A stretch of 64,000 nucleotides of DNA from a candidate division FCPU426 bacterium (lineage in GTDB: Bacteria > Oederibacteriota > Muellerivitia > Muellerivitales > Muellerivitaceae), in the NCBI GenBank assembly GCA_963738405.1, contig CAVTWJ010000014.1, forward strand, positions 160,001-224,000. Reading direction: 5' to 3'. The translations under genes were made by a program, and so were the position numbers. Positions 13,324 to 56,648 of the stretch are shown here, one piece after another; position 1 is the first letter of the stretch; each line of letters begins with the position of its first letter. The notes under the pieces were generated by a model, which made no database searches, was not told the origin of the DNA, and worked only from the letters and a program-made list of their open reading frames with translations.

Positions 13324-13357
13324 TTTATTTTCTCCATTTTCAAAAAGTTAAATTCTC

Positions 13358-13542: not shown

Positions 13543-13912
13543 TTTTTTCTCCTTAACATTTCAGAAATGGCTTTTTAAACTTTCTCCCCTTGCGTGAAAA
13601 CCGTAAGGGTTTTCGCCTCCTTCCGCATCTCTCTTTTGCGGGTCCAATGGGCGAAATAACCCATGCCCAGCACCAAGGCCCCCCAAAGGAGTGGGCTCAT
13701 TAAAAACAAGACCCTTTCCACGGAACACCTCCACAATGAAAACAAGCCTCAACAACTCATCTGCTGTCGAAGAAACAATACGGCGAAAGGGGATATGGAT
13801 GCTGTTAAGAGGGATGAAGTAATAATTAGGGAAAAATAAATATGGCTGTTTTATGGAGCCTTTTCCTGTCCGCTTCCCCGCCAGAAGCGTAAAATCATCT
13901 TGAACATGAAAG

Positions 13913-16639: not shown

Positions 16640-16699
16640 AAGAAATTCAGAGGCCCGTATAGAACTGGGTTTATATTAGTTTCCTGAGGGAGGAGCCCC

Positions 16700-23607: not shown

Positions 23608-23700
23608 TACTTTATCTTCCCCTGAAGAACCGGAGGCATCCGGGCCTTTTTCCAAAGCTTTTCATGCGTGCCAAGGATTTCAAAACGATTTTACGATGGG

Positions 23701-23713
23701 TGAAAACGCTTCA
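23701..23713. promoter_or_regulatory. LacI-type operator-like site upstream of the GH30-CBM11 gene
   Basis: TGAAAACGCTTCA; the reverse strand shares TTTGAAGCGTTT with the site near 48804. Confidence 0.5.
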
Positions 23714-23970
23714 AATCATCACCTTCGCTTCAGTGGAAAGATACCGCCGGAAGGGGGGAGGCACAACAGCGGAGACAAATCAATAGGCTCAAAAAAATCA
23801 AACTTATAGACTTTTATTTCAAACAACACAATTTACCGAATTTTCTAAGTTTCTCGGTCAAACCTGCTTCACCTCCGTGAGATTGCCTCACCCCAACCAG
23901 GAAGCCCAATTCGCCAGCGGGACGTTTGCACCTCACAGAGGTTGAAACCAGGAACAACGTTTTCTTTGTT

Positions 23971-26900: not shown

Positions 26901-27624
26901 TACTGGTCATGTAATCGATGCTGGCCGCGGGCGAGGCCGAAAAATCCGTCGAGTAGGAAAAATAGTAGGTTCCGTTGATCTTGTTCATGAAGGGCGCCTC
27001 GAAATAACGAGGGGCGTCGATTGAGACCGCGGAACCGCTCACGCTGATCATGTCAGAGTTCAATTTGATGACCCGGGCATTTCCTGGGCCCCCACCCCCG
27101 AAATAAAGATAGGCCTGGCCGTCATCGTCGATGAAGGCGGCCGGATCGAAAACATAAGTGATATTGGTGCCCGGAGTGCTGTTGCTGACCAGCGAATGGC
27201 CCAAGGGATCGGTAAAAGGTCCGGTCGGGCTAGTGCTGCGGGCGACGCCAATGCTGCCGCCCCCGTTCCCGTAGTAAAGGTAATAGAACCCGTTGCGGAA
27301 GATTGTATCCGGGGCATAGGTCAGGCCGGCCCAGGAGGTGTTACTGGCGCTGAACGGTATCCCTTCGTCGGTCCAATTCACCAGATCGTCAGAGGACATG
27401 AGGTAGACATTTGTGATTGAATAACCCGTTTGGCCGGTGATGTCGTGGGAACAATAGATGTACATCCGGCTGCTGGCGGTGTCCCAAAAGGCGGTGGGGT
27501 CAGCGGTGTATTGCTGGTAAATGAGCGGGTTTGCGGAGGCGGGCGAGTTGAATAAAGCGAAACACAACAGGGTCAAAATTGGAAATCCAAAATATCGTTT
27601 CAAGCTGAACTGTTGCCCTTGCAT
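23971..27624 (-). CDS. Secreted GH43 + CBM6 + malectin + Pro/Thr stalk + CBM3 + T9SS-like CTD
   Basis: ADPTA, YCSHD, FDPAAFIDDDGQAYLYFGG, FEAP; CBM6 (FSARVA..IRLDSTTGTLIG..TGG.QTW..HDVYFVF); malectin RVNAGG/LKFAE; CBM3 VRYWF..DWA..NDWSY. Confidence 0.9.
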   Translation of the reverse strand: MQGQQFSLKRYFGFPILTLLCFALFNSPASANPLIYQQYTADPTAFWDTASSRMYIYCSHDITGQTGYSITNVYLMSSDDLVNWTDEGIPFSASNTSWAGLTYAPDTIFRNGFYYLYYGNGGGSIGVARSTSPTGPFTDPLGHSLVSNSTPGTNITYVFDPAAFIDDDGQAYLYFGGGGPGNARVIKLNSDMISVSGSAVSIDAPRYFEAPFMNKINGTYYFSYSTDFSASPAASIDYMTSSSPMSGFTHRGTALFNPPNNCGNNNHAGIVNIGSNYYIAYHNRELALLNGLTCSGNAVYQRSVNLDRLFVNSDGTLAVVTPTTAGVAALKNQNPFSTLRAVMMAKESGLQTGVCSEGGMNITGTINGSWTQVRNMSFGTGASSFSARVAGTVSGGSIQIRLDSTTGTLIGTCPVPNTGGTQTWQNATCAITGATGLHDVYFVFTGGSGTLFNFESYSFTQSNGSTSTPTKTNTPSAPTATNTPVPPTATFTHTPTVTSTPTPIVSSSWRVNAGGPAYTDTTSNVWAADENFSGGTTVAEGAAVTGTSDSTLYDTQRYGNSFSYSFNVPAGSYQVTLKFAETYSGDFAAGDRVFNVAVNGSTAVSNLDVYAQVGANTQDDKVINNVSPTGGVITITFTGTTSTDTSAMVEAIQVIPQPATPTFTNTPTKTWTATGTPTATSTATRTSTASFTFTPTVTRTNTAIPPTATNTNSPVPPTSTFTFTPTATLTAVPPTATRTSTAVPPTSTNTAIPATSTFTSVPPTSTNTAVPPTATATNTPAPPTATNTAAPPTSTSTSTPVPPTATSTNSPVPPTVTNTPLPPTATNTPAPPSPTVSQTPTNTYTFTGTATNTAVPPTATRTNTAIPPTSTFTSVPPTATFTFTFTHTNTPVPPTATFTFTHTNTPVPPTATFTFTNTPVPPTATFTFTPTPSGAAALTVELLSSITTDSTNSPHPFIEVVNTGSGALNLNNVEVRYWFNCDCTNQSVQSWVDWAGLMPAGTSVTSDVLHTTVATSLGGQTNYISYKFTGNLVLQPGQAIQIQSRFNKSDWSNMLQDNDWSYAAYTSYTPWTHVTAYEGGSLVWGQEPSGSSAALKAASVIAYPNPSTGNGVNLAVNLSGTGSGSSNASAKTVGSSGEEGIDPNSDITLKAYTIDGRLIWSTTVSGASFDSTGNHTVYWNEKNYVGNYLANGLYIVTCTVKSQGQSTTTTCKLLILK

Positions 27625-27675
27625 GGGTCCCCCCGAAATCAAATGTTGGGAATGCCCTCAGGCGCATTCCCAGGC

Positions 27676-27709
27676 GAAACCGCTTCCACCTTCAAGTGGA
27701 CCGGTTCAC
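27676..27709. promoter_or_regulatory. LacI-type operator-like sites just downstream of the ECF promoter
   Basis: GAAACCGCTTCC (27676) and near-palindrome GTGGACCGGTTCAC (27696-27709). Confidence 0.5.
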
Positions 27710-27711
27710 TA

Positions 27712-27742
27712 GATTTGTGTTTGGAGAAGTGGGTTTTATTCC
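27712..27742 (-). promoter_or_regulatory. Putative ECF promoter upstream of the GH43-CBM6-malectin-CBM3 gene
   Basis: Minus strand GGAATAAAACccacttctccAAACACaaATC; identical spacing to the other two copies. Confidence 0.72.
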
Positions 27743-27777
27743 AAAGGAGGAAAAAGGAGGGGAAAGACTTGTGTCGA

Positions 27778-30700
27778 TTACCTTAGGACCAGCAATTTCC
27801 CTATCGTTTTTCCGCCGTTCGTCGTCACCACCACATAGTAAAGCCCGTTGGCCATCGGCCCTCCCCAACGGCTCACCAACGGGAGATGAAGGGCCGTTCC
27901 TGAAGGCACCGAATCCTCTGTCCAATCGACAACCTTGCGGAAATTGACCGTGAAAACCTCAATTCGAACCTTTGACAGGCCCGGATAGCTCGGCGGGAGG
28001 ATGTTGACGGTTCCGCCCGGAACGGGGTTGGGATAGAGGCCCACATGACCCGCTAGCGGCGTGGAAACCGGGGTTACCGTCAAGGCAGGGCTCGGCGTGG
28101 AGGTGGGGGTGGCCGAAGGGCTAGGGGTAGCGGTAAAGACGGGGGTGCTGGTGGCCGAGGGCGAAAAGGTTGGCGTCGAGGTTCGGGTCAAGGTGATGGT
28201 AAAGCTCGCGGTAGCGGAAGGGGTCGGAGTTGAAGTCGAAGCGGCGGTATTGACCGGTGTCAGGGTGGCGGTGGGCGTCACCGTCCAGGTTGGGGTTGGA
28301 GTCGGGGTCCCCGACGCGGTTTGCGTCAAGGTGGAAGTAGATGTCAGCGTATGGGTAGGGCTGAATTGCGCGGTTAAGGTCGGTGTTTCCGTAAGGGTCG
28401 GAGTCGTCGTCATCGTGAAGGTCGATGTCCTAGTGGCGGTATGGGTGGAAGTCGGGGTGGTCGTAACGGTGGAAGTGGAGGTAAGGGTCGCGGTCAAGGT
28501 TTGGGTGGCAGTGAAAGATGAGGAGGATGTGGGTGTAGAAGTGAAAGAATGGGTGGGGGTAGGGGACAGGGTGTTGGTGGGACTGAATTGCGGCGTGAGG
28601 GTTATCGTTCCCGTGGGGGTGGGCGTGCTGGTGGTCGTATTGGTTGCTGTACGGGTGGCAGTCGCCGGGAGCGTGGCGGTTGATGTAAAAGTTCCCGTGG
28701 AGGTCGAGGACGCCGTCGGGGTAAGGGTCTTAGTCGTGGTGGTCGTCGCGGTAGAGGTTTGAGTCAGGGTGGCCGTGGGTGAGGAAGTCGCAGTCACGGT
28801 CCGGGTACTGGTTAAAGTATTGGCGGTGGTGAAGGTGGAGGAGGCCGTGAGGGTTTGGGTTGGGGTAGAGGTAAGGGTGCTTGTCTTTGTCACCGTGGGG
28901 GTAGAGGTTTGAGTCGCCGTCAATGTGCTGGTGGGGGTGTTGGTGCGGGTGACTGTTGATGTGGAAGTCGAGGTACTCGCCGGAGTGGGTGTGGAAGTCG
29001 GGCTCGGCGTCGGGGTGCGGGTGGGAGTACCCGAAGGCGTCGGAGAACTGGTGCCAGTTGAAGTAATGGTATTGCTGGGTGTGGAAGTTTTGGTCAGGGT
29101 GGCTGAGGGGGTAGGGCTGGGTGTGTTCGTGCGGGTCGCGGTGGGCGTGCTGGTCGGGGTGCCCGCCGGGATATCCCCGTAAAGGATTCCCCTGGCCCCG
29201 GGGGCTATATAACAACGGCCATAGATACTTTCATCCCCCTCGATCCAACCTGGGATGAACGGCTTGCTGGCGTTGCTGATCGAGGTCCAGGTTACGCCCG
29301 CGCCGTCGTCGCACCGGAAAATACCTTGGGTTCCATTAACGGTTCCTGACAGGAAGACCGCCGGGTGGGTCTGGCCGGAGGCGGCCTTGCCGAACCCCAC
29401 CGGACCCTTGGGCTCGTACACGTTCGCGAGGGCCGTCACGCTGGAACCCCCGTTGGTGAATCGGAAGAGGGCGTTGTAGGTGGAGACCCAGAATTCCCCG
29501 GGCTCCCCGAAGACGGAACGGGGCATGACCCACTGCCCGTTGCCGTTGGCGTCGCCCCAATTGACCGCGATGGTGTTCACCTGGGTGAAGCTGGCCCCGG
29601 AGTTGGTGCTCTCGTAGATCGTCACCGAATTGCCGTAAACCCATTCGCTGGGATAGGTGGCGTAGAAGGTGGTTGCGTTCGAACGGTCCGAGGCCACCAT
29701 GGCGCCGCTGGGAAGACCCGAGCAGGCCGTCCAACTCCCGCCGAGGGAGGAAGCATAGGCCGGGGAGCCGTAGCCGCTATAGGGAGAAACCACCACCCGG
29801 GACCCGTCGGCGGCCACCGCCACCGATCCCATCTGGCCCGTTGTGGTATAGCCCGGAGGGGCGCTGCCCCAGGGCGTCCAGGTTTGCCCGTTGTTGGTAG
29901 AATAGGCCACGTCGCTGTTCACGGCTGAGGGGTTGGTGCTATTCCCCGCCCGGACCACCGTATTGGGTTTGGATTCGGCGAAGTCCAGCATGTTGGTGTT
30001 CGTGTATTGGGGATTGCAGTACATCCCTAAGGCGGGCGACTGGGTCACGTTCGTGTGGCGCATGCCCCCCACGTCGCCCATGCAGGAAAAGAGGATGCCT
30101 CCCGTCGCCGCGGGAGGCATGTAAATAGGAACCGTCTCCTCCAGGTTGTTGTCGGTGTAGGTCCAGGAAACGGGGCTCGCCTGGATATTGGCGCTGCTCC
30201 AAACCCCGCCCCCTTCCCCGGAGGGATAATAGGCGTTGTTGGAATTGAACGGATCGATGGCCACGAACCCCGCCCAACCCGCCCCGCCCGGGGCACCGCT
30301 GCATCCATTTTGGTAAATGGCGCTGTTGTTGTTGAAGACCGAGGAACCGGAGCCGGCCTCGGCGATAACCGACCAGGAACCCCCGCCGTTGGCGGTCGAA
30401 AGGACCCTATCGGGACCGCCCCACCAATCGATGGTCGAGACCAGGATATGGCTGGCGTTCTCGTGATCCACGCAGATACCGGCGTAACCGCCGGCGCCGC
30501 TCCCGGGGCCAATGGAAGGGGTTTCGTTGGTCCAGCCCAGGGTTCCGGTATTGAGCTTCCAGACCTGGCCCGTCGAGACGCTGTTGGGGCCGTAGCCGCC
30601 GCTGTCGTAGACGATCCAAAGGTTGCTGTCCGTCCCCAGGCTGGCGTGGGGCGTGACCATGTTGGAAGGCCCGCCGGAAATAAGGGTCCAGCTTCCTCCG

Positions 30701-31410
30701 GAGTTGGTGGAACGGTAGATATTGCTGTTGCCGGAGGACATGGAGAGGACGCCCACATAGATCGTGGCGGAAGCCGAGCCCGAGGTACCGTGGGGGTCGA
30801 AGATCACCCAGGAAAGGCCGTAGCCGGTATCGCCCAGAACCGGGAAGGAACCGACCTGAGTCCAGGAAGCGGCCGAATTGGCGCTCACCCAAAGCCCCTG
30901 CCAACGGGAGGCGAAATAAAGCTTGGAGGTCAGGTTGGGGTCCACCGCCAATCGTTCCCCCGCTTCCCTTCCGTCATTGTTGCCCGCGATGGAGACCGGA
31001 ATGGCATTGGCGGTCCAGGAGTTGCCTTGGTCGGTGGAGCTGAGGATGGTGCCGGCACCCGAGAAGCCCGCGGCGGCGTAGACCACGTTGGCGTTGACGG
31101 GATCGGGCGCGATGCTCTCCCCCCCGAAGTTGTTGCCCCCTCCATACATGTCGGTCAAGGGCACCCATTGGCTTGTGGAATTATTCCAGCGGTAGAAACC
31201 GCCGACATCGGTGCGCGCGTAAAGGAGATTCTGTTGGACAGGGCTGTAGACTAAGCCCGGGACAAAGCCGCCGCCCATAATCGCCACACTCTGCCAGGTA
31301 TAGGCTTGGGCGTAGGACCTTCCAGCACAACCTAAAACAAGACACAGCACCGCCAAAAAGACCGGCCTGCTTAGCACAAATAATTTGATTGGGTTATTCG
31401 AATAGGACAT
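27778..31410 (-). CDS. Secreted GH74 xyloglucanase + Thr/Pro stalk + T9SS-like CTD
   Basis: GGGFVPG, YARTDVGG (catalytic Asp), GERLAVDP, STDQG/STNSG Asp-boxes, LEET, MGDVGG (second Asp); start at 31410 after GGGAG. Confidence 0.9.
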   Translation of the reverse strand: MSYSNNPIKLFVLSRPVFLAVLCLVLGCAGRSYAQAYTWQSVAIMGGGFVPGLVYSPVQQNLLYARTDVGGFYRWNNSTSQWVPLTDMYGGGNNFGGESIAPDPVNANVVYAAAGFSGAGTILSSTDQGNSWTANAIPVSIAGNNDGREAGERLAVDPNLTSKLYFASRWQGLWVSANSAASWTQVGSFPVLGDTGYGLSWVIFDPHGTSGSASATIYVGVLSMSSGNSNIYRSTNSGGSWTLISGGPSNMVTPHASLGTDSNLWIVYDSGGYGPNSVSTGQVWKLNTGTLGWTNETPSIGPGSGAGGYAGICVDHENASHILVSTIDWWGGPDRVLSTANGGGSWSVIAEAGSGSSVFNNNSAIYQNGCSGAPGGAGWAGFVAIDPFNSNNAYYPSGEGGGVWSSANIQASPVSWTYTDNNLEETVPIYMPPAATGGILFSCMGDVGGMRHTNVTQSPALGMYCNPQYTNTNMLDFAESKPNTVVRAGNSTNPSAVNSDVAYSTNNGQTWTPWGSAPPGYTTTGQMGSVAVAADGSRVVVSPYSGYGSPAYASSLGGSWTACSGLPSGAMVASDRSNATTFYATYPSEWVYGNSVTIYESTNSGASFTQVNTIAVNWGDANGNGQWVMPRSVFGEPGEFWVSTYNALFRFTNGGSSVTALANVYEPKGPVGFGKAASGQTHPAVFLSGTVNGTQGIFRCDDGAGVTWTSISNASKPFIPGWIEGDESIYGRCYIAPGARGILYGDIPAGTPTSTPTATRTNTPSPTPSATLTKTSTPSNTITSTGTSSPTPSGTPTRTPTPSPTSTPTPASTSTSTSTVTRTNTPTSTLTATQTSTPTVTKTSTLTSTPTQTLTASSTFTTANTLTSTRTVTATSSPTATLTQTSTATTTTTKTLTPTASSTSTGTFTSTATLPATATRTATNTTTSTPTPTGTITLTPQFSPTNTLSPTPTHSFTSTPTSSSSFTATQTLTATLTSTSTVTTTPTSTHTATRTSTFTMTTTPTLTETPTLTAQFSPTHTLTSTSTLTQTASGTPTPTPTWTVTPTATLTPVNTAASTSTPTPSATASFTITLTRTSTPTFSPSATSTPVFTATPSPSATPTSTPSPALTVTPVSTPLAGHVGLYPNPVPGGTVNILPPSYPGLSKVRIEVFTVNFRKVVDWTEDSVPSGTALHLPLVSRWGGPMANGLYYVVVTTNGGKTIGKLLVLR

Positions 31411-31636
31411 GGTTACTGAAGCTCCCGTTCCATTGTACCTCGATCGCCGCTGGGAGCTATTTGACTTTACCGCCAAACTGACCGTAAAAATATCAGACCA
31501 AAAAAAATAAGCTCGAAAACTTTAAACTTAGAGTGTTAGAAGAAAAAAACCACGCCCTCAACCCAAGATCCACGGAGGGAAGGGGAAGGAAGCCCATTCA
31601 TTCCCCTGCCCGTCCGCAGTTGCCTTGGTACGGCTT

Positions 31637-34600
31637 CTATTTCAAGATCAGCAGTTTACAAGTTGTCGTGGTGGTCTGGCCCTGCGATTTCACCGTGCAG
31701 GTCACGATATATAACCCGTTTGCCAGGTAATTCCCCACGTAGTTTTTCTCGTTCCAATAGACCGAATGGTTGCCGGTGGACCCGATGGAGGCTCCTGAAA
31801 CCATGGTCGACCAGATCAACCGGCCATCGATGGTATAGGCCTTGAGGGTGATCTCGGCGTTCGGGTCGATTCCCTCATCTCCCGAGGAACCCACCGTCTT
31901 GGCGCTGGCATTGGAGCTTCCCGAGCCGGTACCGGATAGATTCACCGCCAGGTTCACCCCGTTCCCTGTGGAGGGGTTCGGGTAGGCGATCACGCTCGCC
32001 GCCTTCAAGGCCGCTGAGGAGCCGGAAGGTTCTTGGCCCCAAACCAGAGACCCGCCCTCATAAGCCGTGATATGGGTCCAAGGCGTGTAGCTGGTGTAGG
32101 CCGCGTAGCTCCAGTCGTTGTCCTGGAGCATGTTGCTCCAGTCGCTCTTGTTGAACCGGCTTTGGATCTGGATAGCCTGCCCAGGCTGGAGAACCAGATT
32201 CCCCGTGAACTTGTAGCTGATGTAGTCGGTCTGGCCGCCCTGGCTGGTGGCAACAGTCGTGTGCAACACATCACTCGTCACTGAAGTCCCGGCAGGCATC
32301 AACCCCGCCCAATCCACCCAGCTTTGGACGCTCTGGTTGGTGCAATCGCAGTTGAACCAGTAGCGCACTTCAACGTTATTCAGGTTCAAGGACCCGGACC
32401 CTGTGTTGACCACCTCAATGAAGGGATGGGGGCTGTTGGTGGAATCGGTCGTGACCGACGACAACAGTTCCACGGTCAAGGCCGCAGCTCCGGAAGGCGT
32501 GGGTGTGAAGGTAGCGGTTGGGGGCACCGGCGTGTTGGTAAAGGTGAATGTCGCTGTGGGCGGCACCGGCGTGTTGGTGTGGGTAAAGGTCGCCGTTGGC
32601 GGAACCGCCGTGCTAGTACTGGTAACGGTCGGAGGCGCTGGGGTATTCGTGACCGTCGGTGGTACCGGCGTATTCGTCACCGTGGGCGGCACCGGACTAT
32701 TGGTAGCCGTTGCCGTAGGCGGAACAGGCGTGCTGGTACTGGTAGATGTCGGAGGAGCCGCCGTATTCGTGGCTGTTGGAGGCGCCGGAGTGTTGGTAAC
32801 CGTCGGCGGAGCAGGCGTATTGGTCACGGTCGGCGGTACCGGGCTGTTGGTAACCGTCGCTGTGGCAGGCACCGAGGTGAAGGTCGAAGTCGGCGGGATT
32901 GCCGTATTCGTCGACGTTGGCGGCACGGCTGTGGCCGTTCTTGTGGCCGTCGACGTAAAGGTAGCGGTTGCGGTCGGCGTCCCCGTGGCTGTCGAAGTCC
33001 TCGTGGGGGTATTTGTAAAGGTTGGCGTAGCCGGTTGCGGAATGACCTGGATGGCTTCCACCATGGCGCTGGTATCGGTGCTGGTGGTTCCCGTAAAGGT
33101 GATGGTAATCACGCCGCCGGTGGGCGACACGTTGTTGATCACCTTGTCGTCCTGGGTGTTGGCGCCCACTTGGGCGTAAACGTCCAGGTTCGAAAGCGCC
33201 GTGCTTCCGTTGACGGCCACGTTGAAAACCCTGTCCCCTGTGGCGAAATCGCCCGAATAGGTCTCGGCGAATTTCAGGGTGACCTGGTAGCTCCCGGCTG
33301 GCACGTTGAAGGAATAGCTGAAGCTGTTCCCGTAGCGCTGGGTGTCGTAAAGGGTGGAATCGGAGGTGCCGGTCACGGCCGCTCCCTCAGCCACGGTGGT
33401 TCCGCCGCTGTAGTTCTCGTCCGCGGCCCAAACGTTGCTCGTGGTGTCCGTGTAAGCCGGACCGCCGGCGTTCACCCGCCAGCTGGAGGACACAATCGGA
33501 GTCGGTGTGGAGGTGACGGTGGGGGTGTGGGTAAAGGTGGCCGTGGGCGGGACGGGGGTGTTGGTGGCCGTGGGGGCCGACGGAGTGTTTGTCTTGGTCG
33601 GCGTAAAGGTAAAGGTCGCCGTCGGGTTGGTTACCCCCGAGACAACTCCCACGAAACTCGTGACGCTAGAGCCGGTCAAGGAATAGGTGAAACTGTTACC
33701 CGAGACTGCTACGGGGGATTTCGCAACAAGGTTATTGCTGCCGTCCGTCACCCAGGGGGTCACCGAAGTCACGTTGACGCCGTTAATGCTGAAAGTCTGG
33801 CTGGTGGTTGAACTGTTGTTGTTGATGGCGACGAAGACGATGGTCTGGGGTGAAGAGGTATTGGTATTTTTGAATGCGCTCACATTAACACCTGATGTCG
33901 GGCTCGCGGTTGCGCCCATGCGGTAATAACCAGGCCGGATGAACTTGCTGTAATTGCCCAGGACATAGGCCTTGATGGTGAAGGCGTTATTGCTGATCAG
34001 GTCGGTGAGCCACCAATAGTGAAAAGCGTTCATATTGGAATTAACCAGGCAGTTTTGTATCCATCCCGCTTCCGTCAATGCGCCCGGAATATCGGTGCTA
34101 TTCCCAGACATCTCAGTTTCCCACCATTCCTGATTCGTCACATGGGTGAAACCAAAGGAAGAAAGGGGCCCCGGATTGGGGGAACCATAAAGATGGGTCC
34201 CGATGATGCCGATCATGGGGGCCACGGTCGTGTCGTCCATGGCGGTCGAGGCCAGGTTCATCCCTCCGGTGTTGTCCGGCTCGGGGAGCATGATCTTGGT
34301 CGAAAGACCCGCGCTTTGGAGGGCGCTATGGAAAGCATTCGCGTAAACATCAAACTGGCCCGCCGTCCAAAGGCAGGCTTCGTAGGTGGGGTTGAAATTG
34401 GGTTCGTTCTGGATGGAAAGGGCGTAAAGGGGGGCGCCATGGCTTTGGGCATATTGGATGAAAGAGACTTGGTAAGAAGCTAATCCTGTGTCGGCGCTGT
34501 TGGGGGAGCCGGAGCCGGCGCCCAAAAAGGTATCGTTGCTGGCGCCGCCATTGACGTTATTGTTCGCCTTGTATTGGGCCGGGGGTGACCATTCGGTAGC

Positions 34601-34903
34601 CCATAAAAGGACATTGGGATTGACCGAATGGGCTGTCGCGAGGGTACTCACTTCCGGCGAGAAGTTGTTGTTGGGGTCGATGCGTGCCCGGAGGGAGCTG
34701 ATCCCGATGTGGCCGTTCACGTTGTCCTCGGCGAACAGGGCCTGGCCTAGGCTTCCGATACCGCTCCAGGCGCTGGAGGCCCCGATGCAATGGATGTACT
34801 GGTTGGTCTGGGTGGCGTCAACGGTACAGGTGCCGGCCAGTGCGGCAGAAGCAGCCGTGAAAATCACCGAGATGAAAAGACCCAGGAAATATTTTTTACC
34901 CAT
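31637..34903 (-). CDS. Secreted GH30 + malectin + Pro/Thr stalk + CBM3 + T9SS-like CTD
   Basis: WSPPA, QNEPN, WETEMS, FHYWW, GNYSKFIRPGYYR; tail near-identical to the 23971-27624 gene. Confidence 0.88.
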   Translation of the reverse strand: MGKKYFLGLFISVIFTAASAALAGTCTVDATQTNQYIHCIGASSAWSGIGSLGQALFAEDNVNGHIGISSLRARIDPNNNFSPEVSTLATAHSVNPNVLLWATEWSPPAQYKANNNVNGGASNDTFLGAGSGSPNSADTGLASYQVSFIQYAQSHGAPLYALSIQNEPNFNPTYEACLWTAGQFDVYANAFHSALQSAGLSTKIMLPEPDNTGGMNLASTAMDDTTVAPMIGIIGTHLYGSPNPGPLSSFGFTHVTNQEWWETEMSGNSTDIPGALTEAGWIQNCLVNSNMNAFHYWWLTDLISNNAFTIKAYVLGNYSKFIRPGYYRMGATASPTSGVNVSAFKNTNTSSPQTIVFVAINNNSSTTSQTFSINGVNVTSVTPWVTDGSNNLVAKSPVAVSGNSFTYSLTGSSVTSFVGVVSGVTNPTATFTFTPTKTNTPSAPTATNTPVPPTATFTHTPTVTSTPTPIVSSSWRVNAGGPAYTDTTSNVWAADENYSGGTTVAEGAAVTGTSDSTLYDTQRYGNSFSYSFNVPAGSYQVTLKFAETYSGDFATGDRVFNVAVNGSTALSNLDVYAQVGANTQDDKVINNVSPTGGVITITFTGTTSTDTSAMVEAIQVIPQPATPTFTNTPTRTSTATGTPTATATFTSTATRTATAVPPTSTNTAIPPTSTFTSVPATATVTNSPVPPTVTNTPAPPTVTNTPAPPTATNTAAPPTSTSTSTPVPPTATATNSPVPPTVTNTPVPPTVTNTPAPPTVTSTSTAVPPTATFTHTNTPVPPTATFTFTNTPVPPTATFTPTPSGAAALTVELLSSVTTDSTNSPHPFIEVVNTGSGSLNLNNVEVRYWFNCDCTNQSVQSWVDWAGLMPAGTSVTSDVLHTTVATSQGGQTDYISYKFTGNLVLQPGQAIQIQSRFNKSDWSNMLQDNDWSYAAYTSYTPWTHITAYEGGSLVWGQEPSGSSAALKAASVIAYPNPSTGNGVNLAVNLSGTGSGSSNASAKTVGSSGDEGIDPNAEITLKAYTIDGRLIWSTMVSGASIGSTGNHSVYWNEKNYVGNYLANGLYIVTCTVKSQGQTTTTTCKLLILK

Positions 34904-34996
34904 CGAAGCACCCCTTTGAATTTTCGCGACTTAAATTTCAATTAAATCGTTGTGAGCCAAGGACAAGGCATGGAAAGGCGTAGGGACCCTGACATC

Positions 34997-35027
34997 GATT
35001 AGTGTTTGGAGAATGCCGGTTTATTCC
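34997..35027 (-). promoter_or_regulatory. Putative ECF promoter upstream of the GH30-malectin-CBM3 gene
   Basis: Minus strand GGAATAAACCggcattctccAAACACtaATC matches the motif upstream of the sigma gene. Confidence 0.75.
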
Positions 35028-35081
35028 CGTCAGGCGACGGTTTTTATCCGGGAAGCGGGGAGGCTTATTTTATTAGGAAAA

Positions 35082-36413
35082 TCAGGGGTTTTGAGGGTGT
35101 TTAAGGTGGTATGTCCCCAACCATTGGCTTAAAGCTTGGTCGCTCGGGTTCAGGCGGAGGGCCTGTTCCAGGCATTGGAGAGCCTGGGCATTCTGGCCCA
35201 ATCGCAGGTAAACAATTCCCAGGTTCCGCCAGGCCCGGCTGTCCTGCGGGTTCGCCTGAACCGCCTGCTCATAGGGCCCTGTCAAACTGGAAGCCTGGTT
35301 CGCCGTGCCCGGGGTTGCCACGGCGGCGGGGAGTTCGAAACGCACTTCAACCTTCGATTTGGCGACTCCTTCCGGGAGGGGAGAGGGCATGGGCGTCGCC
35401 ACTACCGTAACCGGGAGGGCCTGAACCGTCACAGGTTTGGGGGAAACTGGGGTGGGATTGGCAAATTCGTATCCCACGCTAATACGGTGCGAGGTTCCCA
35501 GGTCGCCGTAAGGAACAAAGGCGTAGTCCAATTGAAAAGAACCTAACTTTACACCCGCTCCGGCAGTGAAACCCGTCAACCCGTTGATTTGGTTGTCAGA
35601 GAGCGCCCCTTGGTAACCCACCCGAAGGCTATAGTCCCGTTCAATGGTTCCTTCCAAACCGCATTGGAGGCGGCTCACGCCATTGGGCTCCCAGTCCCCC
35701 ACAAGAAGGGGGCAAAGATCCGCGCCCTTTCCCAAATACAGGATCGTCGAGAGGCCTAGGCGCAGATCCTGGGCCGGAGTTATGCCGGAAAGATCCGTCC
35801 CCAGTCCCGAGTAGGTCAAACCCAATCGAAAGTCAGGTGCCGGGATAAAGAGGGCGCCCACATCGCCGGACATACTCGTATAAAGCGCCTCAACGATCTT
35901 TTGTTGGAATCCGTGCAAGGCGATCCCCAGGGAAAATTCCCGCGCCACCCTAGTTCCCCAACCCAGGCTGAAGGCAGCGTCGCTGTCGGTGAAGGATCCA
36001 AGGTAAACCCCATTGGGATCCCGTTCATCCAAATTTCCCCAGGAAACATATTGAAGGGCCCCGGCGAAACCGCCCAGGGAGCCCGCGGGTAATCCGAAAA
36101 GAAGGGTCTCCTCGAAGGAACCTGCCAGATAGCTGTTATGGTTAATGGAAAGACTGGCGGCGCGCAATTGGGATAGCCCCGCGGCGTTAAAGAACAATGC
36201 CGAAGGATCGTCGGCGAGCCCCGCGAGGGCGTCCCCCAATGCGTCCGCCCGGGCCGAGGCCCCGAGAGCGGTGAGCGGAGTCTCCAGACCCGCGCCTGAA
36301 GAAACCGTCTGGACCGGAAGAGCCGTCTGCGGCAAGAAAAGAAACATGACGACGACCAAAATCGTTTTAGACCATCGTCGCGCCGTTTTGAAAGGGCGGA
36401 AAACCATTATCAT
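35082..36413 (-). CDS. PorV/PorQ-like (UPF0164-type) outer-membrane beta-barrel with C-terminal Pro linker and TPR
   Basis: Signal peptide; GASARADALGDA..LADDPSALFFNAAGL N-terminal signature; amphipathic strands ending LDYAFVPYGDLGTSHRISVGYEF; TPR AWRNLGIVYLRLGQ...ALRLNP. Confidence 0.8.
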   Translation of the reverse strand: MIMVFRPFKTARRWSKTILVVVMFLFLPQTALPVQTVSSGAGLETPLTALGASARADALGDALAGLADDPSALFFNAAGLSQLRAASLSINHNSYLAGSFEETLLFGLPAGSLGGFAGALQYVSWGNLDERDPNGVYLGSFTDSDAAFSLGWGTRVAREFSLGIALHGFQQKIVEALYTSMSGDVGALFIPAPDFRLGLTYSGLGTDLSGITPAQDLRLGLSTILYLGKGADLCPLLVGDWEPNGVSRLQCGLEGTIERDYSLRVGYQGALSDNQINGLTGFTAGAGVKLGSFQLDYAFVPYGDLGTSHRISVGYEFANPTPVSPKPVTVQALPVTVVATPMPSPLPEGVAKSKVEVRFELPAAVATPGTANQASSLTGPYEQAVQANPQDSRAWRNLGIVYLRLGQNAQALQCLEQALRLNPSDQALSQWLGTYHLKHPQNP

Positions 36414-37840
36414 TTTTCGACCGCCAGAACCTGGGTCTTAAAGTTATCGGCCCGGCCCGAGGAGTAATTCAGCTCGACGCGGTAAAAATAATGTCCCGGC
36501 GCGAAGGCGGAAATGTTGAGAGTGCTTGATTGCAATCCAGACCCCTTGGGATCGCTCAGGGTGGCGGCAAGGTTTCCCCAGGCGTTCCAGATCTTGATAT
36601 TGGCGGTACCCGACTCGGCCATGGTGTAAACGAACTGCACGGTGTTCCCGCTGGTGGGGTTGGGAGCCACGTAGGGGTTGCCCCCAACAGGCGCGGGCGG
36701 TGTGGAAACAGGCGTAGGACAGGCGCCCGCCAGATTCATTTGGCCGTAATCGCTCGCGTTCGAATAATCGTCCGATTCGCCATTCCAGATGATTTGACCG
36801 TCCCGGCAATTGCCCCCGTTGTGGTTCACATCGACCCCTACATCAAAACCTAAAACCGTTCCGGGATTGGGACTGCCTATTCCTAATGTGGACCAGGGGA
36901 TCGAGGCCTCAATCACATATCCGGCGGGGATCGTCGTGGTCCGCATGCTGACCCCCGCGGTCCTTCCCTGGGACTCGGTAGCTGTCGTATCGTTCCATCG
37001 GAAAAAATATTCGAAGTCGGCATTCGTAACCGTGACACCTCGTGAATCCGCCGTATCCAGATAAAGTTCCACCGTCGAATTGACCCATACGGAGGCTGAT
37101 CCTGTATTCGTGAGCTGACTGTCAGTGACCGTTACGCCCAGATAAAGATTTGTCGAGTCCCATAGGGTCTTAAATTGGGCCGTGGTGCCATAAACATTGC
37201 CCAGCACAGTTTTGTTGACGGTATTCCAGCCTGTCGGGATTTCCCAGGGCCATTCGTTCAAAACCCCGTCCACGCTGACGCCCGCTTGGCAGGCGGAAGG
37301 TGTTTGGGGCGTGGGGGTGGGGTTGAGCGGGGCCCCCGAGAAGAGGTATTCCCGGGGTATATATTCCTGGGCTTGGGAAGGGCTCTGCCAGGCCAGTTGG
37401 ATGAGGTCCGTAGTTGGGTTGGCGCCGTTGGTGAAATAATCCAACTCGATCGAGACGGGCGTATTGGCGGTGAGCGTAATGACCCCTGCAAAGCCTCGGA
37501 TAGGCGGGGGGAAATCGGTCCATTGGTTGATGAGAACCTGTCCGTTGATGATCAGGCTCACACCCCCATTCACATCTGCGATGAAGGTGTAGGGTTCGCT
37601 ATAGGCGGGTTCCACTTGGCCCGTCCACTTCACCGAAAAGGAGGTGCCCGACATGCCCGGCTGGGGGGGACAGCCAAACCAGCGATAGCTGATCAGAGGA
37701 TCCACCACCGTTACCGCCGGGCTGGTCAAATTGGAGTTAATGTAATAGACGCCCTTGAGGCCGTCGCCGTTGAACTGGGCGAAGGAGGGTTTGGGGAGGC
37801 AAAGCAGAACAGCGCAAAGGGCGAATGGGATCCGTTTCAA
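36410..37840 (-). CDS. Secreted non-catalytic PA14 + CBM9-like protein with a divergent T9SS-like CTD
   Basis: GDGLKGVYY..FSVKWTGQV..LAWQSPS (PA14); VDGVLNEW..LWDSTNLYLGVTVTD..IEASIPW (CBM9-like); VAPNP..IWN..G..PGHYFYRV CTD; stop overlaps the PorV-like start. Confidence 0.8.
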   Translation of the reverse strand: MKRIPFALCAVLLCLPKPSFAQFNGDGLKGVYYINSNLTSPAVTVVDPLISYRWFGCPPQPGMSGTSFSVKWTGQVEPAYSEPYTFIADVNGGVSLIINGQVLINQWTDFPPPIRGFAGVITLTANTPVSIELDYFTNGANPTTDLIQLAWQSPSQAQEYIPREYLFSGAPLNPTPTPQTPSACQAGVSVDGVLNEWPWEIPTGWNTVNKTVLGNVYGTTAQFKTLWDSTNLYLGVTVTDSQLTNTGSASVWVNSTVELYLDTADSRGVTVTNADFEYFFRWNDTTATESQGRTAGVSMRTTTIPAGYVIEASIPWSTLGIGSPNPGTVLGFDVGVDVNHNGGNCRDGQIIWNGESDDYSNASDYGQMNLAGACPTPVSTPPAPVGGNPYVAPNPTSGNTVQFVYTMAESGTANIKIWNAWGNLAATLSDPKGSGLQSSTLNISAFAPGHYFYRVELNYSSGRADNFKTQVLAVEK

Positions 37841-37925
37841 GGCAGCCTCGAGAATGGTTCATTCGGACCGACCAAACCATTATTTACCCGGGGCCTAACA
37901 ACGCACCAGAGAATATTCGTGTTCT

Positions 37926-38603
37926 TTAGGGAGCCGTCGGCTGGAGCTTGATCCGGATGTTCTTGGACATGTGTGCCTCGCCCGCCTGCACATCAATGCG
38001 GTAATCGCCCGTGCCCGCCGCTTCCCCGTTATCCAAAAGGCCGTCCCATTTAAAGTCCCACCGCCCGGCCTGGACAAAACCGGCGTAAAGGGCCCTTACT
38101 TCCTTTCCGCCCGAATCGAGGATACGGACCGTCACGAGGGATTTTTGCGGCGCGTCCACCAGAACACTCAATTCTTGGCCTTCCTGACCGGGTCCGGCCG
38201 ATAAGGGTTGAATGGGAACGGGTTTTTGGACCACAGGTTTCAAGGTTGAAACGCTGGATTTTTCAATGGGTTGTTGGACGGTCTGCGGTTGAACCTGCAG
38301 AGGAACTTCCATTTTAGTTTGGGGCCAGAACTTCCAAAGGGCAGTCCCCCCGGCGGCCAGAACCACCAAAAGAAGCTTGGCCGCGCCGGACCAACCAACC
38401 GGGCCCGCGCCTCCGGGATGGGGAAGGGATTGCAGGCCCTGGGGGAGTGTCGGCTGGGGAAGGCCGGTGGCAAGATAATGCTGTTGGAGCATTTTCTCAT
38501 AGCTCAAAGCGGCATCGGGGGAACTTTCCAAAAGCTTGGAAAGGGCCGCATGTTCGGCCTCGCTCAGTTCCCTCGTGAAAAATTCTTGGACTAAATCAGC
38601 CAT
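37926..38603 (-). CDS. Membrane anti-sigma factor with periplasmic FlgD-Ig/CTD-like domain
   Basis: N-terminal ASD-like ELSEAEHAALSKLLESSPDA (no Zn-binding Cys/His motif); one TM; VRILDSGGKEVRAL..KWDG..NG..GDYRI FlgD-Ig pattern; overlaps the sigma stop. Confidence 0.75.
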   Translation of the reverse strand: MADLVQEFFTRELSEAEHAALSKLLESSPDAALSYEKMLQQHYLATGLPQPTLPQGLQSLPHPGGAGPVGWSGAAKLLLVVLAAGGTALWKFWPQTKMEVPLQVQPQTVQQPIEKSSVSTLKPVVQKPVPIQPLSAGPGQEGQELSVLVDAPQKSLVTVRILDSGGKEVRALYAGFVQAGRWDFKWDGLLDNGEAAGTGDYRIDVQAGEAHMSKNIRIKLQPTAP

Positions 38604-39168
38604 TTTCGCCTTCTTTTATGAACTGCTCGACTAGCACCTTGAGCGCCTTTTTGCACCGGGAAAGCCTCGACATCACGGTCCCCAAGGGGATCTTGAGCGT
38701 CTTTCCGACCTCGATATAACTCATTTCCTTCATTTCTCGTATTTGAATAATCTCCCGGCATTCCTGGCCTATCTTTTCCAGGCATTTCTCGATGATTCCC
38801 AGCTTGAAGCGTTTTTCCTGTTCCCGATCCCCAGCTTCCTGCCGGTCCTTGGCCGCGGATTGGAGCAAAAAATCTAATTCAGCGTGTTCTTGACTCACCA
38901 GCTTCGCCCTTTGCCGGTACCGGTTGTGGCACTTAAAGATGCAAATCTGCGTCAGCCAGGTCGAGAGACTGGACCGGAACTCGAATTCGGGCAATTTTTC
39001 AAAGGCTGTGATAAAGGTTTCTTGGACCAAATCTTCAGCCTCCGGGTCCTGATAGCCCAATAAATACACGCAGTTTCGATAAAGTCTTTCCCGATAGGTG
39101 ACGAAAAACTGGGTCTTAGCTTGATCGTCGCCTTGGAGGATCTTTTGAACCAACTCCCGTTCGTCCAA
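38596..39168 (-). CDS. ECF (sigma-70 group 4) RNA polymerase sigma factor
   Basis: AEDLVQETF..AF, FRSSLSTWL (region 2); SYIEVG..L.IPLGTVMSRLSR (region 4); 190 aa. Confidence 0.93.
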   Translation of the reverse strand: MDERELVQKILQGDDQAKTQFFVTYRERLYRNCVYLLGYQDPEAEDLVQETFITAFEKLPEFEFRSSLSTWLTQICIFKCHNRYRQRAKLVSQEHAELDFLLQSAAKDRQEAGDREQEKRFKLGIIEKCLEKIGQECREIIQIREMKEMSYIEVGKTLKIPLGTVMSRLSRCKKALKVLVEQFIKEGENG

Positions 39169-39182
39169 GAGTGCCCCTTACA

Positions 39183-39213
39183 GATGAGTGTTTTAACGTG
39201 AATGGTTTATTCC
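39183..39213 (-). promoter_or_regulatory. Putative autoregulatory ECF promoter (GGAATAAACC-N10-AAACACTCATC)
   Basis: Ends 14 nt before the sigma start codon; same 31-nt pattern and spacing as 34997-35027 and 27712-27742. Confidence 0.75.
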
Positions 39214-39274
39214 ATTTTGAACCCAAATGGGAGGTTTTCATCAAAAAACTTTCTCTTTAAAAAGCTGATTTCCC

Positions 39275-41089
39275 TTAACCTCGCTGGGATTTTTTCCGGA
39301 ATTGCTGTGGTGATTGAGCGGTTTTTCGCCGAAAGAACCGCGCGAAGTGGGAGCCGGGTTTGAATCCGCAGGATTTGGCGACTTGAGAGACTGGCAGGCT
39401 TCCAGTTTTCAAAAGCCGTTTCGCTTCCTCCAGCCGCAGGTTCTGTAAGTAGTTTTCCAAGCCCATTCCCGCGGTTTTCTTGAAATGACGGCTAAGAGTG
39501 GCGGTCGATACATCCGCAAGCCTCGCGAGTTTGGCGATTCTCAATGGTTCTCGGAAATGCTCGTTCAAATAATCACGGACCTTTTCCATTGAAAAGGCCG
39601 TCTTCAAAGCGCCAGGACCCTGCATGAGACGCAAAAGTTTTTCCAACGCGTCCTTGAAAGAGAAAACCATTTCCTGCGTGGTCCCGGCTTTCTCCAGGGA
39701 AAGCACCAGGTTTTGGTGGAGTTGATCGGCCTCCTTTTCGCTTAAGTTCCCTTGGGCGCGGATCGTATCTCTCATCTGGATCAAAGCGTACTGCAGGTGC
39801 AGGCGGATGCCGTCAGGGTCGTGCATGGAGAGGGTCAGGACCTGTTTCAAGAATTCATCCAGCACCGCTTCCATGCCTGAGAGGGATGAAACCTCGATGC
39901 GCTTCTTAAGTTCCCGCAAGAGGCTCGACAATTCCAAGATCCCTTCTGAAACTTCCAACCGGACGGGTTTGAAAAAAACAATTTCCTGGCCCGTTGCCCG
40001 GCCCAAGTGCAGGGCCAACACCGCCTGCTGATAGGAATCCAAAAGCGTTTCACCGGGCGTGACAGTTTCTCCCACTCCCACCAGAACAGGCCCCTCCAAT
40101 TCTTCCTGGGCGAAAGCGTGAATCCTTTCGGTAAGTTCCCTCAATTCATCCCGGCGTTGGGGCCGGCTCTTGGAAAGATCGGGCGAGGTGATGAAAAGTG
40201 CGCCGTAATTTTCAAGCCGTCCTCCCAAGGTTTGGGGCAGGGTCTTCGCGAAGCGGAAAGCCCGCCGCTGGAAACGGTAGATCCGAAACATTTCCTCAAT
40301 GGGGTCTCTCTTCTTCCCTTGAATGGTCAGCGGAATGGCTGTCAGGACCGTCGTCGGAATACGGCTGATGCCGATATCGGACTTGATCCAGTCCATTTTC
40401 GGAACTTCGGTGTTCCAAAGGGGCGTAGCCTGCCGGGTGGGAAGTCCCAGGGCCCAATCCATGAAATAACTGTGGGGAAAATGCCTGGAGAATATTTTCG
40501 TCGAAAGTTCCTGAAGACGGCGGGGCGCGTTGGAGAGATTTTCCCGGACCAAGATATCGGCGAACAGTTTCAACGCTTCCCGGTAAGCCGAAAGAACCGG
40601 CCCTTCCAGAACGGGTGTATCGAGCATGACGCGGACAAACTGCCGGAATTCGGGGTTTTCAGGAGTTGCGGTTTGTCCCGTCAATTGGTTCCAGCTCATT
40701 TTGAGGAGGGGGTAGGTCACTTCCTCTTTTGCGAAGGCGCCGGATAGGATCGTCCCAAACCGCACCTTCCCCCGCCGGATGGGCATGAAAATGTCATAAA
40801 ACCCCAGGGTCTCCAAAAGAAGCGGCTGGTCCTTGCCCTGTTTCGCCTCATATTCTGGATCAGTGAGTTTGTCCCAATTAAAAGATTGTCCGTATTTCTT
40901 CTCGAAATCGAAGAGCGAGGCGTCCCGGCGGTGATAATTGGCGGCCAACCATCCCTCGGTGCCGCTTCCCGGGTCTTTGGTGATGATGAAACAATTCAGG
41001 TCGACGTAATACCGAAGGATGTTGATGAACCCTTCATATCCAATGAGGTTCTCGAACACCCGGAAGGTTTTGGAAGGACGGGGAGCCAT
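39275..41089 (-). CDS. AraC-family regulator with large N-terminal sensory region (PocR-like plus degenerate GGDEF-like)
   Basis: C-terminal LSRHFKKTAG..YLQNLRLEEAKRLL..VAKSCGF..HFARFFRRKT..SP..FR; central VLVGVG..LLDSYQQA. Confidence 0.85.
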   Translation of the reverse strand: MAPRPSKTFRVFENLIGYEGFINILRYYVDLNCFIITKDPGSGTEGWLAANYHRRDASLFDFEKKYGQSFNWDKLTDPEYEAKQGKDQPLLLETLGFYDIFMPIRRGKVRFGTILSGAFAKEEVTYPLLKMSWNQLTGQTATPENPEFRQFVRVMLDTPVLEGPVLSAYREALKLFADILVRENLSNAPRRLQELSTKIFSRHFPHSYFMDWALGLPTRQATPLWNTEVPKMDWIKSDIGISRIPTTVLTAIPLTIQGKKRDPIEEMFRIYRFQRRAFRFAKTLPQTLGGRLENYGALFITSPDLSKSRPQRRDELRELTERIHAFAQEELEGPVLVGVGETVTPGETLLDSYQQAVLALHLGRATGQEIVFFKPVRLEVSEGILELSSLLRELKKRIEVSSLSGMEAVLDEFLKQVLTLSMHDPDGIRLHLQYALIQMRDTIRAQGNLSEKEADQLHQNLVLSLEKAGTTQEMVFSFKDALEKLLRLMQGPGALKTAFSMEKVRDYLNEHFREPLRIAKLARLADVSTATLSRHFKKTAGMGLENYLQNLRLEEAKRLLKTGSLPVSQVAKSCGFKPGSHFARFFRRKTAQSPQQFRKKSQRG

Positions 41090-41198
41090 AGCCCAAGTTA
41101 ACCCTCTTTTTAGAAAATAGTCACGAAAGATTTAATTCTGGGAAAGGTCATTGCGAGTTCGAAGTTCGGGAATCTTCAGCGAAATGGATCTGTAAGAT

Positions 41199-48622: not shown

Positions 48623-48669
48623 TTCAGCAAATCCTTTTTCAAAGCAAAAACGTTATGAGTTGATATTAC

Positions 48670-48817
48670 AAAACCGGTTACATCGTTGAAATATATGGCA
48701 TTGAAGCGATACCAAAGTTTACCGAATTCTTCATTTTTCAGCGTAGAAAACGCTTTTCCGTTTCACGGTTAACTTCGATTGTTTTGAAGGAATTGAAATA
48801 AATTTTGAAGCGTTTCC
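48670..48817. promoter_or_regulatory. Cluster of LacI-type operator-like sites upstream of the GH74 gene
   Basis: AAAACCGGTTAC (48670), GAAAACGCTTTTC (48746), TGAAGCGTTTCC (48806). Confidence 0.55.
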
Positions 48818-48860
48818 CGTTTGACCGGCCACACAAGTCTTAATGTTTCACCCGCTTCAT

Positions 48861-52649: not shown

Positions 52650-52652
52650 CTT

Positions 52653-56615: not shown

Positions 56616-56648
56616 AATTCTTTCCGCTTGCAGGCGGGTTTTTTAACC

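Follow-up and report, generated by a model that had tools for sequence, protein, structure and literature searches.

Which promoters does a sigma factor of the extracytoplasmic function (ECF) group read when its gene lies in a cluster of polysaccharide-degrading enzymes, and what would it switch on? The question is raised by a 64,000-nucleotide stretch of DNA from an uncultured soil bacterium of candidate division FCPU426 (contig CAVTWJ010000014.1, positions 160,001 to 224,000; the window in what follows). An earlier reading of the bare sequence, here called the original prediction, had picked out a 31-bp motif upstream of a sigma gene and of two glycoside hydrolase (GH) genes, and had taken it for the promoter of an autoregulated ECF regulon. 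We argue here that the ECF sigma factor encoded at 38596-39168 very probably has its cognate promoter in this motif, and that the four-gene cassette headed by the sigma gene suggests an undescribed outer-membrane polysaccharide-sensing route. The specificity, conservation, position and orientation of the motif as well as its co-occurrence with the sigma gene were computed; start sites, sigma dependence and inducer are inferred.

The motif and its copies in the genome

The searched pattern was GGAATAAAMC-N10-AAACAC-NN-ATC (31 bp), with dinucleotide-preserving shuffles and the reversed pattern as controls. Exactly three matches were found in the window, all on the minus strand:

39183-39213, minus: motif 1, predicted autoregulatory promoter of the sigma operon (-35-like GGAATAAA, -10-like AAACAC..ATC)
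34997-35027, minus: motif 2, predicted promoter of the GH30 target (pattern match and cross-genome spacer alignment)
27712-27742, minus: motif 3, predicted promoter of the GH43 target (pattern match)

These are the very sites named in the original prediction. Shuffling the window 100 times yielded no match to the full pattern, and the whole assembly to which it belongs (G000; 3,180,129 bases in 23 contigs, 90.66% complete) contained the same three matches and no further ones, the reversed pattern giving none. The genome-wide scan that had been proposed as a check thus finds the motif to be far from frequent at random positions (three in 3.18 Mb). Relaxing the pattern to GGAATAAA-N11..13-AAACAC still returned only the three known sites, while GGAAT-N15-AAACAC returned seven, including these three; each half alone is common in G000 (266 occurrences of GGAATAAA, 23 of AAACACNNATC). 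With 13 of the 16 core positions as the minimum, the window contains no further site besides the three copies (16/16), and the observation, originally made by eye, that the motif is missing upstream of the other enzymes therefore holds at this threshold.

As for placement, 15 nt separate the end of motif 1 from the TTG start codon of the sigma gene (39168), and AAGGGG, the ribosome-binding site, falls between them. The preceding gene stops 55 nt before motif 2, and the GH30 ATG (34903) comes 94 nt after the motif; motif 3 lies 36 nt past the preceding stop and ~88 nt ahead of the likely GH43 ATG (27624). Outside the motif, the three upstream regions cannot be aligned with each other, the spacers of the GH30 and GH43 copies sharing only TTCTCC. 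A sigma-70-type scan of 23500-41500 returned two promoter-like sites; shuffles gave more, and both sites are on the plus strand. The same region, scanned for terminators, has no convincing ones between the genes, so the operon boundaries are drawn from gaps and overlaps only.

The adjacent sigma factor and its operon

The gene behind motif 1 is the following:

38596-39168, minus: ECF sigma factor, 190 aa, TTG start (Pfam, NCBIfam, profile matches to solved sigma factors)

Its product carries the Pfam domains Sigma70_r2, r4 and r4_2 only, sigma3 being absent, and its length fits that of ECF sigma factors (about 170-220 aa). It scores 85.9 bits against TIGR02937 (cut-off 42.9) and, in profile searches, matches solved ECF sigma factors over the full length, namely SigW, sigma-E and one labelled sigma-H (1e-23 to 1e-27). 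Taken together, these data bear out its original assignment to the ECF group; no NCBIfam equivalog model reaches its cut-off for this protein. Three genes follow:

37926-38603, minus: probable anti-sigma factor, 225 aa (position, one membrane helix, conserved N-terminus)
36410-37840, minus: secreted PA14 + CBM9 protein with a type IX secretion system (T9SS) C-terminal sorting domain (Pfam; visible signal peptide)
35082-36413, minus: PorV/PorQ-family outer-membrane barrel with a TPR tail (NCBIfam; predicted structure; fold search)

The sigma and anti-sigma genes have 8 nt in common, the latter overlapping the sigma stop, and the genes for the PA14-CBM9 protein and the barrel have 4 nt in common; we therefore treat the first four genes as one operon behind motif 1.

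Conservation of the motif in relatives

Homologues of the sigma factor (E <= 1e-20) were found in 30 of the 41 genomes searched, including all 24 other family members (G numbers denote related genomes, L numbers fetched loci and C numbers contigs of G000). We compared the regions upstream of 17 sigma genes, that of G000 and those of 16 orthologues of 51-79% identity. GGAAT[A] stands at a constant distance from the TTG or GTG start in 17/17, and the sequence farther upstream is unrelated. The second half is of the AAACAC type in 11 of the 17, reads AAAAGGCT[AT]AT in four and is lineage-specific in two. Orthologues in related genera have the same bipartite motif 15 nt ahead of the start codon. 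On the protein side, the sigma4.2 recognition helix is invariant in 17/17 orthologues and paralogues, which matches the invariant first half of the motif.

Across 31 family genomes, the pattern GGAATAAA-N12-AAACAC-NN-AT gave 29 matches in 14 genomes, and the reversed control gave none in any of them. Twelve of the 26 matches in relatives lie directly ahead of a sigma orthologue (11 relatives). Among the other 14, nine face GH30/59-like genes with malectin and/or CBM3, and for eight of these nine targets the distance downstream from the sigma promoter is 4.2-4.6 kb, which places them directly behind the four-gene operon. The remaining five face a GH62 + CBM3 gene, a malectin protein (twice, on duplicate contigs, of which one was examined), a Kelch/Sortilin/CBM3 protein and an NHL-repeat protein. 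Every examined match faces a gene that starts 15-325 nt downstream. Genomes without an orthologue of at least 50% identity (G007-G010, G015, G017, G019, G024), which were searched for both, contained no N12 match. With a spacing one base shorter (N11), there were seven matches in four of the 31 genomes (control 0), and in three of these four (G002, G003, G020) a sigma promoter or cassette target has this shorter spacing. The cassette promoters of G004 are one base shorter as well, yet their -10 halves fall outside the searched pattern.

When the spacer between the barrel and GH30 genes was aligned across 13 genomes, the motif was the only conserved island upstream of the leader, the invariant columns being GGAATA.A, ACAC and T. 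The two orthologue lineages that diverge most each have a second half of their own, common to the sigma and target promoters: GGGACTAAT in G001 and CTCTAAG in G021. Hence, every sequence-level expectation tried for autoregulated and target promoters of an ECF sigma factor held, be it conservation, position or co-occurrence with the sigma gene. This agrees with ECF sigma factors being described as needing near-consensus promoters with spacers of 16-18 bp and as autoregulating in about half of the cases (PMC7776599).

The spacer of the sigma copy had been called unrelated to those of the enzyme copies. It is not arbitrary, however: CACGTTA before AAACAC is conserved across genera at the sigma promoter (L005-L011, L014), whereas target promoters have a C-rich spacer ending in CC. 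CACGTTA may provide a second site for binding, or tune promoter strength, in the autoregulatory promoter only. We also considered whether sigma2 residues 77-81 (FKCHN versus YLCYN) track the type of -10 half, and dropped the idea: they separate lineages, but G002 and G003 are exceptions. One further copy of the motif, with one mismatch, was seen in L061 of G003 (9195-9224, minus), where its direction is away from the sigma gene and into the last gene of the neighbouring cassette, at the 3' end; it may be an antisense promoter or due to chance.

Alternative readings and points against

A different reader of the motif is offered by the gene just upstream:

39275-41089, minus: AraC-family regulator, 604 aa, with a long N-terminal part without family assignment (Pfam)

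It ends only 62 nt ahead of motif 1, and this proximity, together with the lack of sigma-70-like promoters in the gaps by scan, would suit a conventional transcription-factor site, for this or another regulator, in place of a sigma recognition site. We hold this to be quite improbable, since the AraC homologue is not syntenic (~14 kb off in G043 and G044 and absent from most fetched loci) while the motif stays with the sigma gene. The motif is, moreover, bipartite, asymmetric and always co-directional with the downstream gene, and a distance of 15 nt from its end to the sigma start codon suits a promoter itself, not an activator site located upstream of a promoter. The idea that the three copies are leftovers of a local duplication or a small repeat, devoid of any regulatory role, draws on the six spacer bases common to the GH30 and GH43 copies and on the homologous C-terminal tail of the two proteins. 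For practical purposes it can be set aside, as the flanks of the three copies do not align, the motif is kept across genera amid unalignable spacer, and shuffles and controls gave no matches.

Other observations speak against the motif as cognate promoter of the adjacent sigma factor more directly. All four paralogous sigma factors of G000 share the first motif half, and the paralogue on C23 has a second half, GAACACTATAC, that is near-identical to that of the window motif at a spacing one base shorter. In G004, G006, G014 and G020, the sigma promoter reads AAAAGGCT[AT]AT and the targets are ACAC-type (AAACAC, AGACAC or CAACAC); only AAA..C..ATC is common to both, so that the same -10 at both promoters is not universal. 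Behind some of the relatives' matches there are non-xylan genes, namely those for the NHL-repeat and Kelch/Sortilin proteins in G016. The predicted leader of the sigma gene is unusually short, and weaker or unassembled sites may exist, the assembly being 90.66% complete and having been covered with relaxed patterns and the 13/16 threshold only. Finally, a search for the stretch 34800-39300 of the window found no RNA run; three DNA runs of one soil study contain parts of it.

The shared first half, the invariant sigma4.2 helix and the C23 promoter also lend themselves to cross-talk, in which one or more of the other paralogous ECF sigma factors would read the motif and the regulon would not be specific to the adjacent one; AAACAC-type matches unlinked to any cassette in G020 point the same way. 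Still, such cross-talk appears unlikely to us: the exact motif co-occurs with and adjoins this very orthologue (the 12 matches in 11 relatives), the C11 paralogue has a clearly different second half at both its promoters (AAAGCATTAAG / AAAGGATTTAAG at sigma gene and target), and in G001 and G021 the second half shifts in step at the sigma gene and the neighbouring target.

The proposed regulon

With the motif read as the promoter of the adjacent sigma factor, the invariant sigma4.2 helix would recognize GGAATAAA, and AAACAC..ATC would contain the -10 element, ~17 nt after GGAAT. Transcription would start a few bases past ATC (for the sigma gene, at ~39177-39182), which would leave a leader of only ~11-14 nt for the sigma gene and of ~85-90 nt, each with a hairpin, for the enzyme genes. 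Copy 1 would drive the four-gene operon of sigma factor, anti-sigma factor, PA14-CBM9 protein and PorV/PorQ-TPR barrel, and thereby establish positive autoregulation. Copies 2 and 3 would drive the following genes (the last two lines give the hairpins in the enzyme leaders):

31637-34903, minus: GH30 (XynC-like) + malectin + CBM3, 1088 aa, first target (Pfam, NCBIfam)
27778-31476, minus: T9SS cargo protein, 1232 aa, no Pfam catalytic domain (Pfam, NCBIfam)
23971-27642, minus: GH43 + CBM6 + malectin + CBM3, second target (Pfam, NCBIfam)
34927-34949, minus: AU-rich hairpin of the GH30 leader with an 8-bp stem and a 7-nt loop, ~24 nt ahead of the ATG
27647-27672, minus: 9-bp hairpin in the GH43 leader, just ahead of the ribosome-binding site (terminator-like scan)

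The GH30 catalytic domain scores 25.3 bits against Pfam Glyco_hydro_30 (cut-off 23), and the protein reaches 166.6 bits over 393/395 positions of NF052681, the model for the glucuronoarabinoxylan endoxylanase XynC, far under the cut-off of 650. For the second enzyme, the GH43 domain scores 129.1 bits (PF04616, cut-off 32.2) and CBM6 118.1 bits. Its true start is likely ATG 27624, which has GGGGGG as a ribosome-binding site ahead of it; the open reading frame list has the in-frame TTG 27642. The gene for the 1232-aa protein has no motif of its own and is therefore probably co-transcribed with the GH30 gene from motif 2. It also comes after the GH30 gene in G018 and G004, and its product resembles Sortilin-Vps10/BNR T9SS proteins (Atlas score 0.92, a lead only).

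That the output consists of two xylan-type enzymes, as first proposed, is too narrow: the four-gene sigma operon and probably the 1232-aa T9SS protein belong to it, and the regulon of relatives also includes GH62 and non-xylan proteins. The set of enzymes points to arabinoxylan, judging from the sub-threshold, full-length XynC-like GH30, the GH43 with CBM6 and the GH62 of relatives. The two targets had also been singled out as the only enzymes with the malectin-CBM3 tail. This is so within the window, where the PL4 lyase (52653-56615) has CBM3 without malectin, but not in the genome, where three more such proteins lie behind the C11 cassette. That paralogous cassette (L083:839-17910) consists of sigma factor, FlgD_ig anti-sigma factor, PA14-CBM9 protein and PorV/Q-TPR barrel with its own -10 variant, and is followed by three large proteins, all with the malectin-CBM3 tail and one of them a GH62. 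In G000, the tail thus seems to mark enzymes placed behind such cassettes.

The stem of the GH30 leader hairpin is kept in close relatives via wobble and both-sided changes, and distant relatives have a GC-rich hairpin in the same place. As a conserved RNA element, it was judged too weak: three of the seven predicted pairs have both-sided changes, and the consensus energy is only -1.13 kcal/mol.

The cassette as a putative surface sensor

The 225-aa membrane protein, by its position and layout, is the probable anti-sigma factor of the adjacent ECF sigma factor. Its 50 conserved N-terminal residues are followed by a membrane helix at ~74-93, then by a P/Q-rich linker and, at the C-terminus, by an FlgD-type Ig domain; Pfam and profile searches gave no family match that covers the N-terminal part. 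The PA14-CBM9 protein is a candidate surface glycan sensor, judging by its modules. Its sorting domain scores 30.5 bits against TIGR04183 (cut-off 23), and it is 54-76% identical across 16 cassettes. The barrel protein reaches 107.9 bits against NF033709 (cut-off 90), the PorQ and PorV equivalogs staying below theirs. In its structural model (mean pLDDT 73.7), the barrel takes up residues ~87-316 and the four-helix TPR residues 371-438, joined by a P/T/V-rich linker (323-372) that is disordered. The best fold matches in the PDB are chain F of the two T9SS translocon entries 8gl6 (E 1.2e-13) and 6h3i (E 1.7e-12), with a TM(target) of 0.63-0.66 and ranking ahead of FadL/TodX channels. In a large protein collection, homologues of the barrel-TPR protein go by no other names than "hypothetical" and "tetratricopeptide repeat protein".

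Of the 18 fetched loci, 16 show the four genes in this order; the other two end early, with the barrel gene just beyond. In the genomes of the sigma search, a PorV/PorQ-like match lies on the same contig, no more than 6 kb away, for at least 75 of the 106 homologous sigma genes, counted among the 150 of 380 PorV/PorQ-like matches listed. Outside the family, one of six sigma homologues (29-39% identity) has a PorV/Q-like gene close by (G031); for the other five, no such gene was found within the fetched stretch. G000 itself has PorV/PorQ family matches at ~17 places (21 matches) and 14 sigma-70/ECF-type matches, and this barrel family is greatly expanded in G000 and its phylum. Of 99 genomes of the phylum, 93 have matches to the barrel-TPR profile (E <= 1e-30), with several matches in each and many of them not beside a sigma gene. 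At the C23 paralogue (L084), the barrel gene lies directly upstream of the sigma gene, and two GGAATAAA-type sites with ATCACTACAC as second half face a divergent serpin gene.

In G021 (L072, 9487-17196), a protein that combines pectate lyase and malectin and has the same sorting tail occupies the third-gene "sensor" slot, and the lineage-specific promoter has a GH28 pectinase behind it as target; "sensor" module and output change together in this single case.

How might the four proteins work together? The membrane anti-sigma factor would sequester the sigma factor at the inner membrane until an envelope signal, which probably reports an arabinoxylan-type polysaccharide, frees it. The PA14-CBM9 protein would be exported by the T9SS and held on the outer membrane by its dedicated PorV/PorQ-type barrel. 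Polysaccharide binding would then be relayed, via the tethered periplasmic TPR tail or the sorting domain of the cargo, to the Ig domain of the anti-sigma factor, and the freed sigma factor would fire its own operon and the enzyme promoters. Analogy and comparative data give the anti-sigma step and the promoter step a good footing, whereas the surface-sensor steps, that is T9SS export with barrel anchoring and the relay to the Ig domain, are inferences. Alternatively, the lectin and the barrel might merely be co-induced accessory proteins.

Structure prediction gives weak support to a contact between the barrel and the anti-sigma factor. The complex of barrel-TPR (34-443) and the outer part of the anti-sigma factor (120-225) scored 0.46 (runs 0.47, 0.46 and 0.42), with a best control of 0.01, a contact agreement between runs of at least 57% and a partner pLDDT of at least 67. 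The mark applied here was reached by 116 of 157 solved complexes and two of 215 mismatched pairs; at scores of up to 0.60, it was reached by only 18 of the 157 solved complexes and by both passing mismatches. A complex of PorV with a bound sorting domain has been solved, so that likeness alone may account for the score. The Ig domain was also examined as a disguised T9SS sorting domain, which we rejected: in a profile-profile comparison with the tail of the PA14-CBM9 protein, the right regions align, but not significantly (E 0.066, probability 0.84).

Neighbouring genes

The cluster continues at 41199-58985 with pectin/galactan-type enzymes that lack the motif. These comprise a GH28 + GH53 fusion (48861-52649), the PL4 rhamnogalacturonan lyase with CBM3 (52653-56615), a GH127-like protein (56913-58985), a second GH30-like protein and a 1421-aa protein without family match. 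The AraC-family regulator may control cluster genes without the ECF motif; its homologues (24-43% identity) occur elsewhere in carbohydrate-active enzyme clusters of G043, G044, G014, G002 and G001. Farther off, the window contains an ordinary kdpABC potassium pump operon with the KdpD/KdpE two-component system (8675-17395).

Comparison with known systems

In its core, the system resembles the RpoE / AlgU / SigW type. Its sigma factor, of ~190 aa, consists of sigma2 and sigma4 and has SigW, sigma-E and the entry labelled sigma-H as best solved relatives; a co-transcribed single-pass membrane partner and a predicted bipartite promoter ahead of its own operon, with probable autoregulation, complete the likeness. 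It differs from these pairs in that the anti-sigma N-terminus is short and unclassified, an FlgD-type Ig domain lies outside the membrane, two outer-membrane or surface proteins are part of the operon, and the regulon consists of glycoside hydrolases instead of envelope-stress genes.

The SigI / RsgI systems of Clostridium thermocellum are described as several paralogous pairs that have their own promoter variants and drive polysaccharide-degrading enzymes, with CBM and PA14 modules in the sensors and paralogues that share promoter elements and differ in a specificity element (PMC6056542, PMC6852018, PMC4711584). The paralogous pairs with own promoter variants, the CBM/PA14 sensor modules and the polysaccharide-degrading output have their likeness here. 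Yet SigI / RsgI are Gram-positive systems with the sensor fused to the anti-sigma factor, whereas here a plain ECF sigma factor is combined with lectin modules on a separate T9SS-exported protein, the cassette includes an outer-membrane barrel, the shared promoter element is the -35 and the variable one the -10. There was no SigI model among the best 25 of 81 NCBIfam matches, and Pfam and NCBIfam found no CBM, PA14 or GH module in the anti-sigma factor of the window, such modules being on the separate gene.

An outer-membrane barrel is encoded together with a sigma factor and an inner-membrane anti-sigma factor in FecI/FecR/FecA (ECF243) and in the Bacteroidetes groups ECF10/ECF240, the latter reported to be tied to carbohydrate scavenging, with SusC-like transducers and many paralogues per genome (PMC7826278, PMC10766802). 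The present cassette likewise unites ECF sigma factor, anti-sigma factor and barrel in one gene group. However, Pfam and NCBIfam detected no FecR domain in the anti-sigma factor (only FlgD_ig) and no TonB-dependent receptor in the cassette, the sigma factor stays below the Bacteroidetes carbohydrate-ECF model TIGR02985 (67.1 bits, cut-off 126.4), and the barrel, unlike the FecA / SusC transducers, belongs to the PorV/PorQ (FadL-like) type and has a tail of TPRs. By analogy, then, the cassette would work like the SigI/RsgI and FecIRA/SusC systems, yet it lacks the features by which their members are recognized.

PorV/PorQ-type barrels are reported to hold proteins by a C-terminal sorting domain (PDB 8gl6; PorQ-PorZ, PMC10947112). 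The nearest T9SS precedent is found in Porphyromonas gingivalis, where the sorting domain of the T9SS cargo PorA is described as a periplasmic ligand that activates PorXY-SigP, SigP being an ECF sigma factor (PMC12152298). In P. gingivalis, a two-component system relays the signal and T9SS genes are the output, whereas here barrel, cargo, anti-sigma factor and sigma factor make up one operon, the barrel has a TPR extension and the output consists of glycoside hydrolases. Full-text literature searches and term searches of the main text of the 2021 ECF re-classification gave no description of a cassette of ECF sigma factor, anti-sigma factor, PorV-PorQ barrel and lectin. The regulon as such is ordinary in kind; the novelty is the surrounding cassette, which links T9SS parts with ECF signalling. 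It is possible, if still somewhat doubtful, that the cassette represents a new class of cell-surface signalling system, with a T9SS-exported lectin, a PorV/PorQ barrel and a relay to the anti-sigma factor, in which the module is multiplied per genome with one common -35 and private -10s.

Significance

The regulon reading provides concrete, testable wiring in an ungrown bacterium, with one sigma factor, three promoters and a few arabinoxylan-type enzymes that share a malectin-CBM3 tail, and the parts are small enough for a trial in E. coli. If the barrel and its lectin cargo do form a sensor, this would explain how T9SS-using fibre degraders outside Bacteroidota sense insoluble polysaccharides. 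The cassette would then represent a third kind of outer-membrane input to ECF sigma factors and a Gram-negative counterpart of the clostridial RsgI sensors, made from T9SS parts. It would also provide a family of orthogonal sigma/promoter pairs, with the same -35 and different -10s, that have substrate sensors built in.

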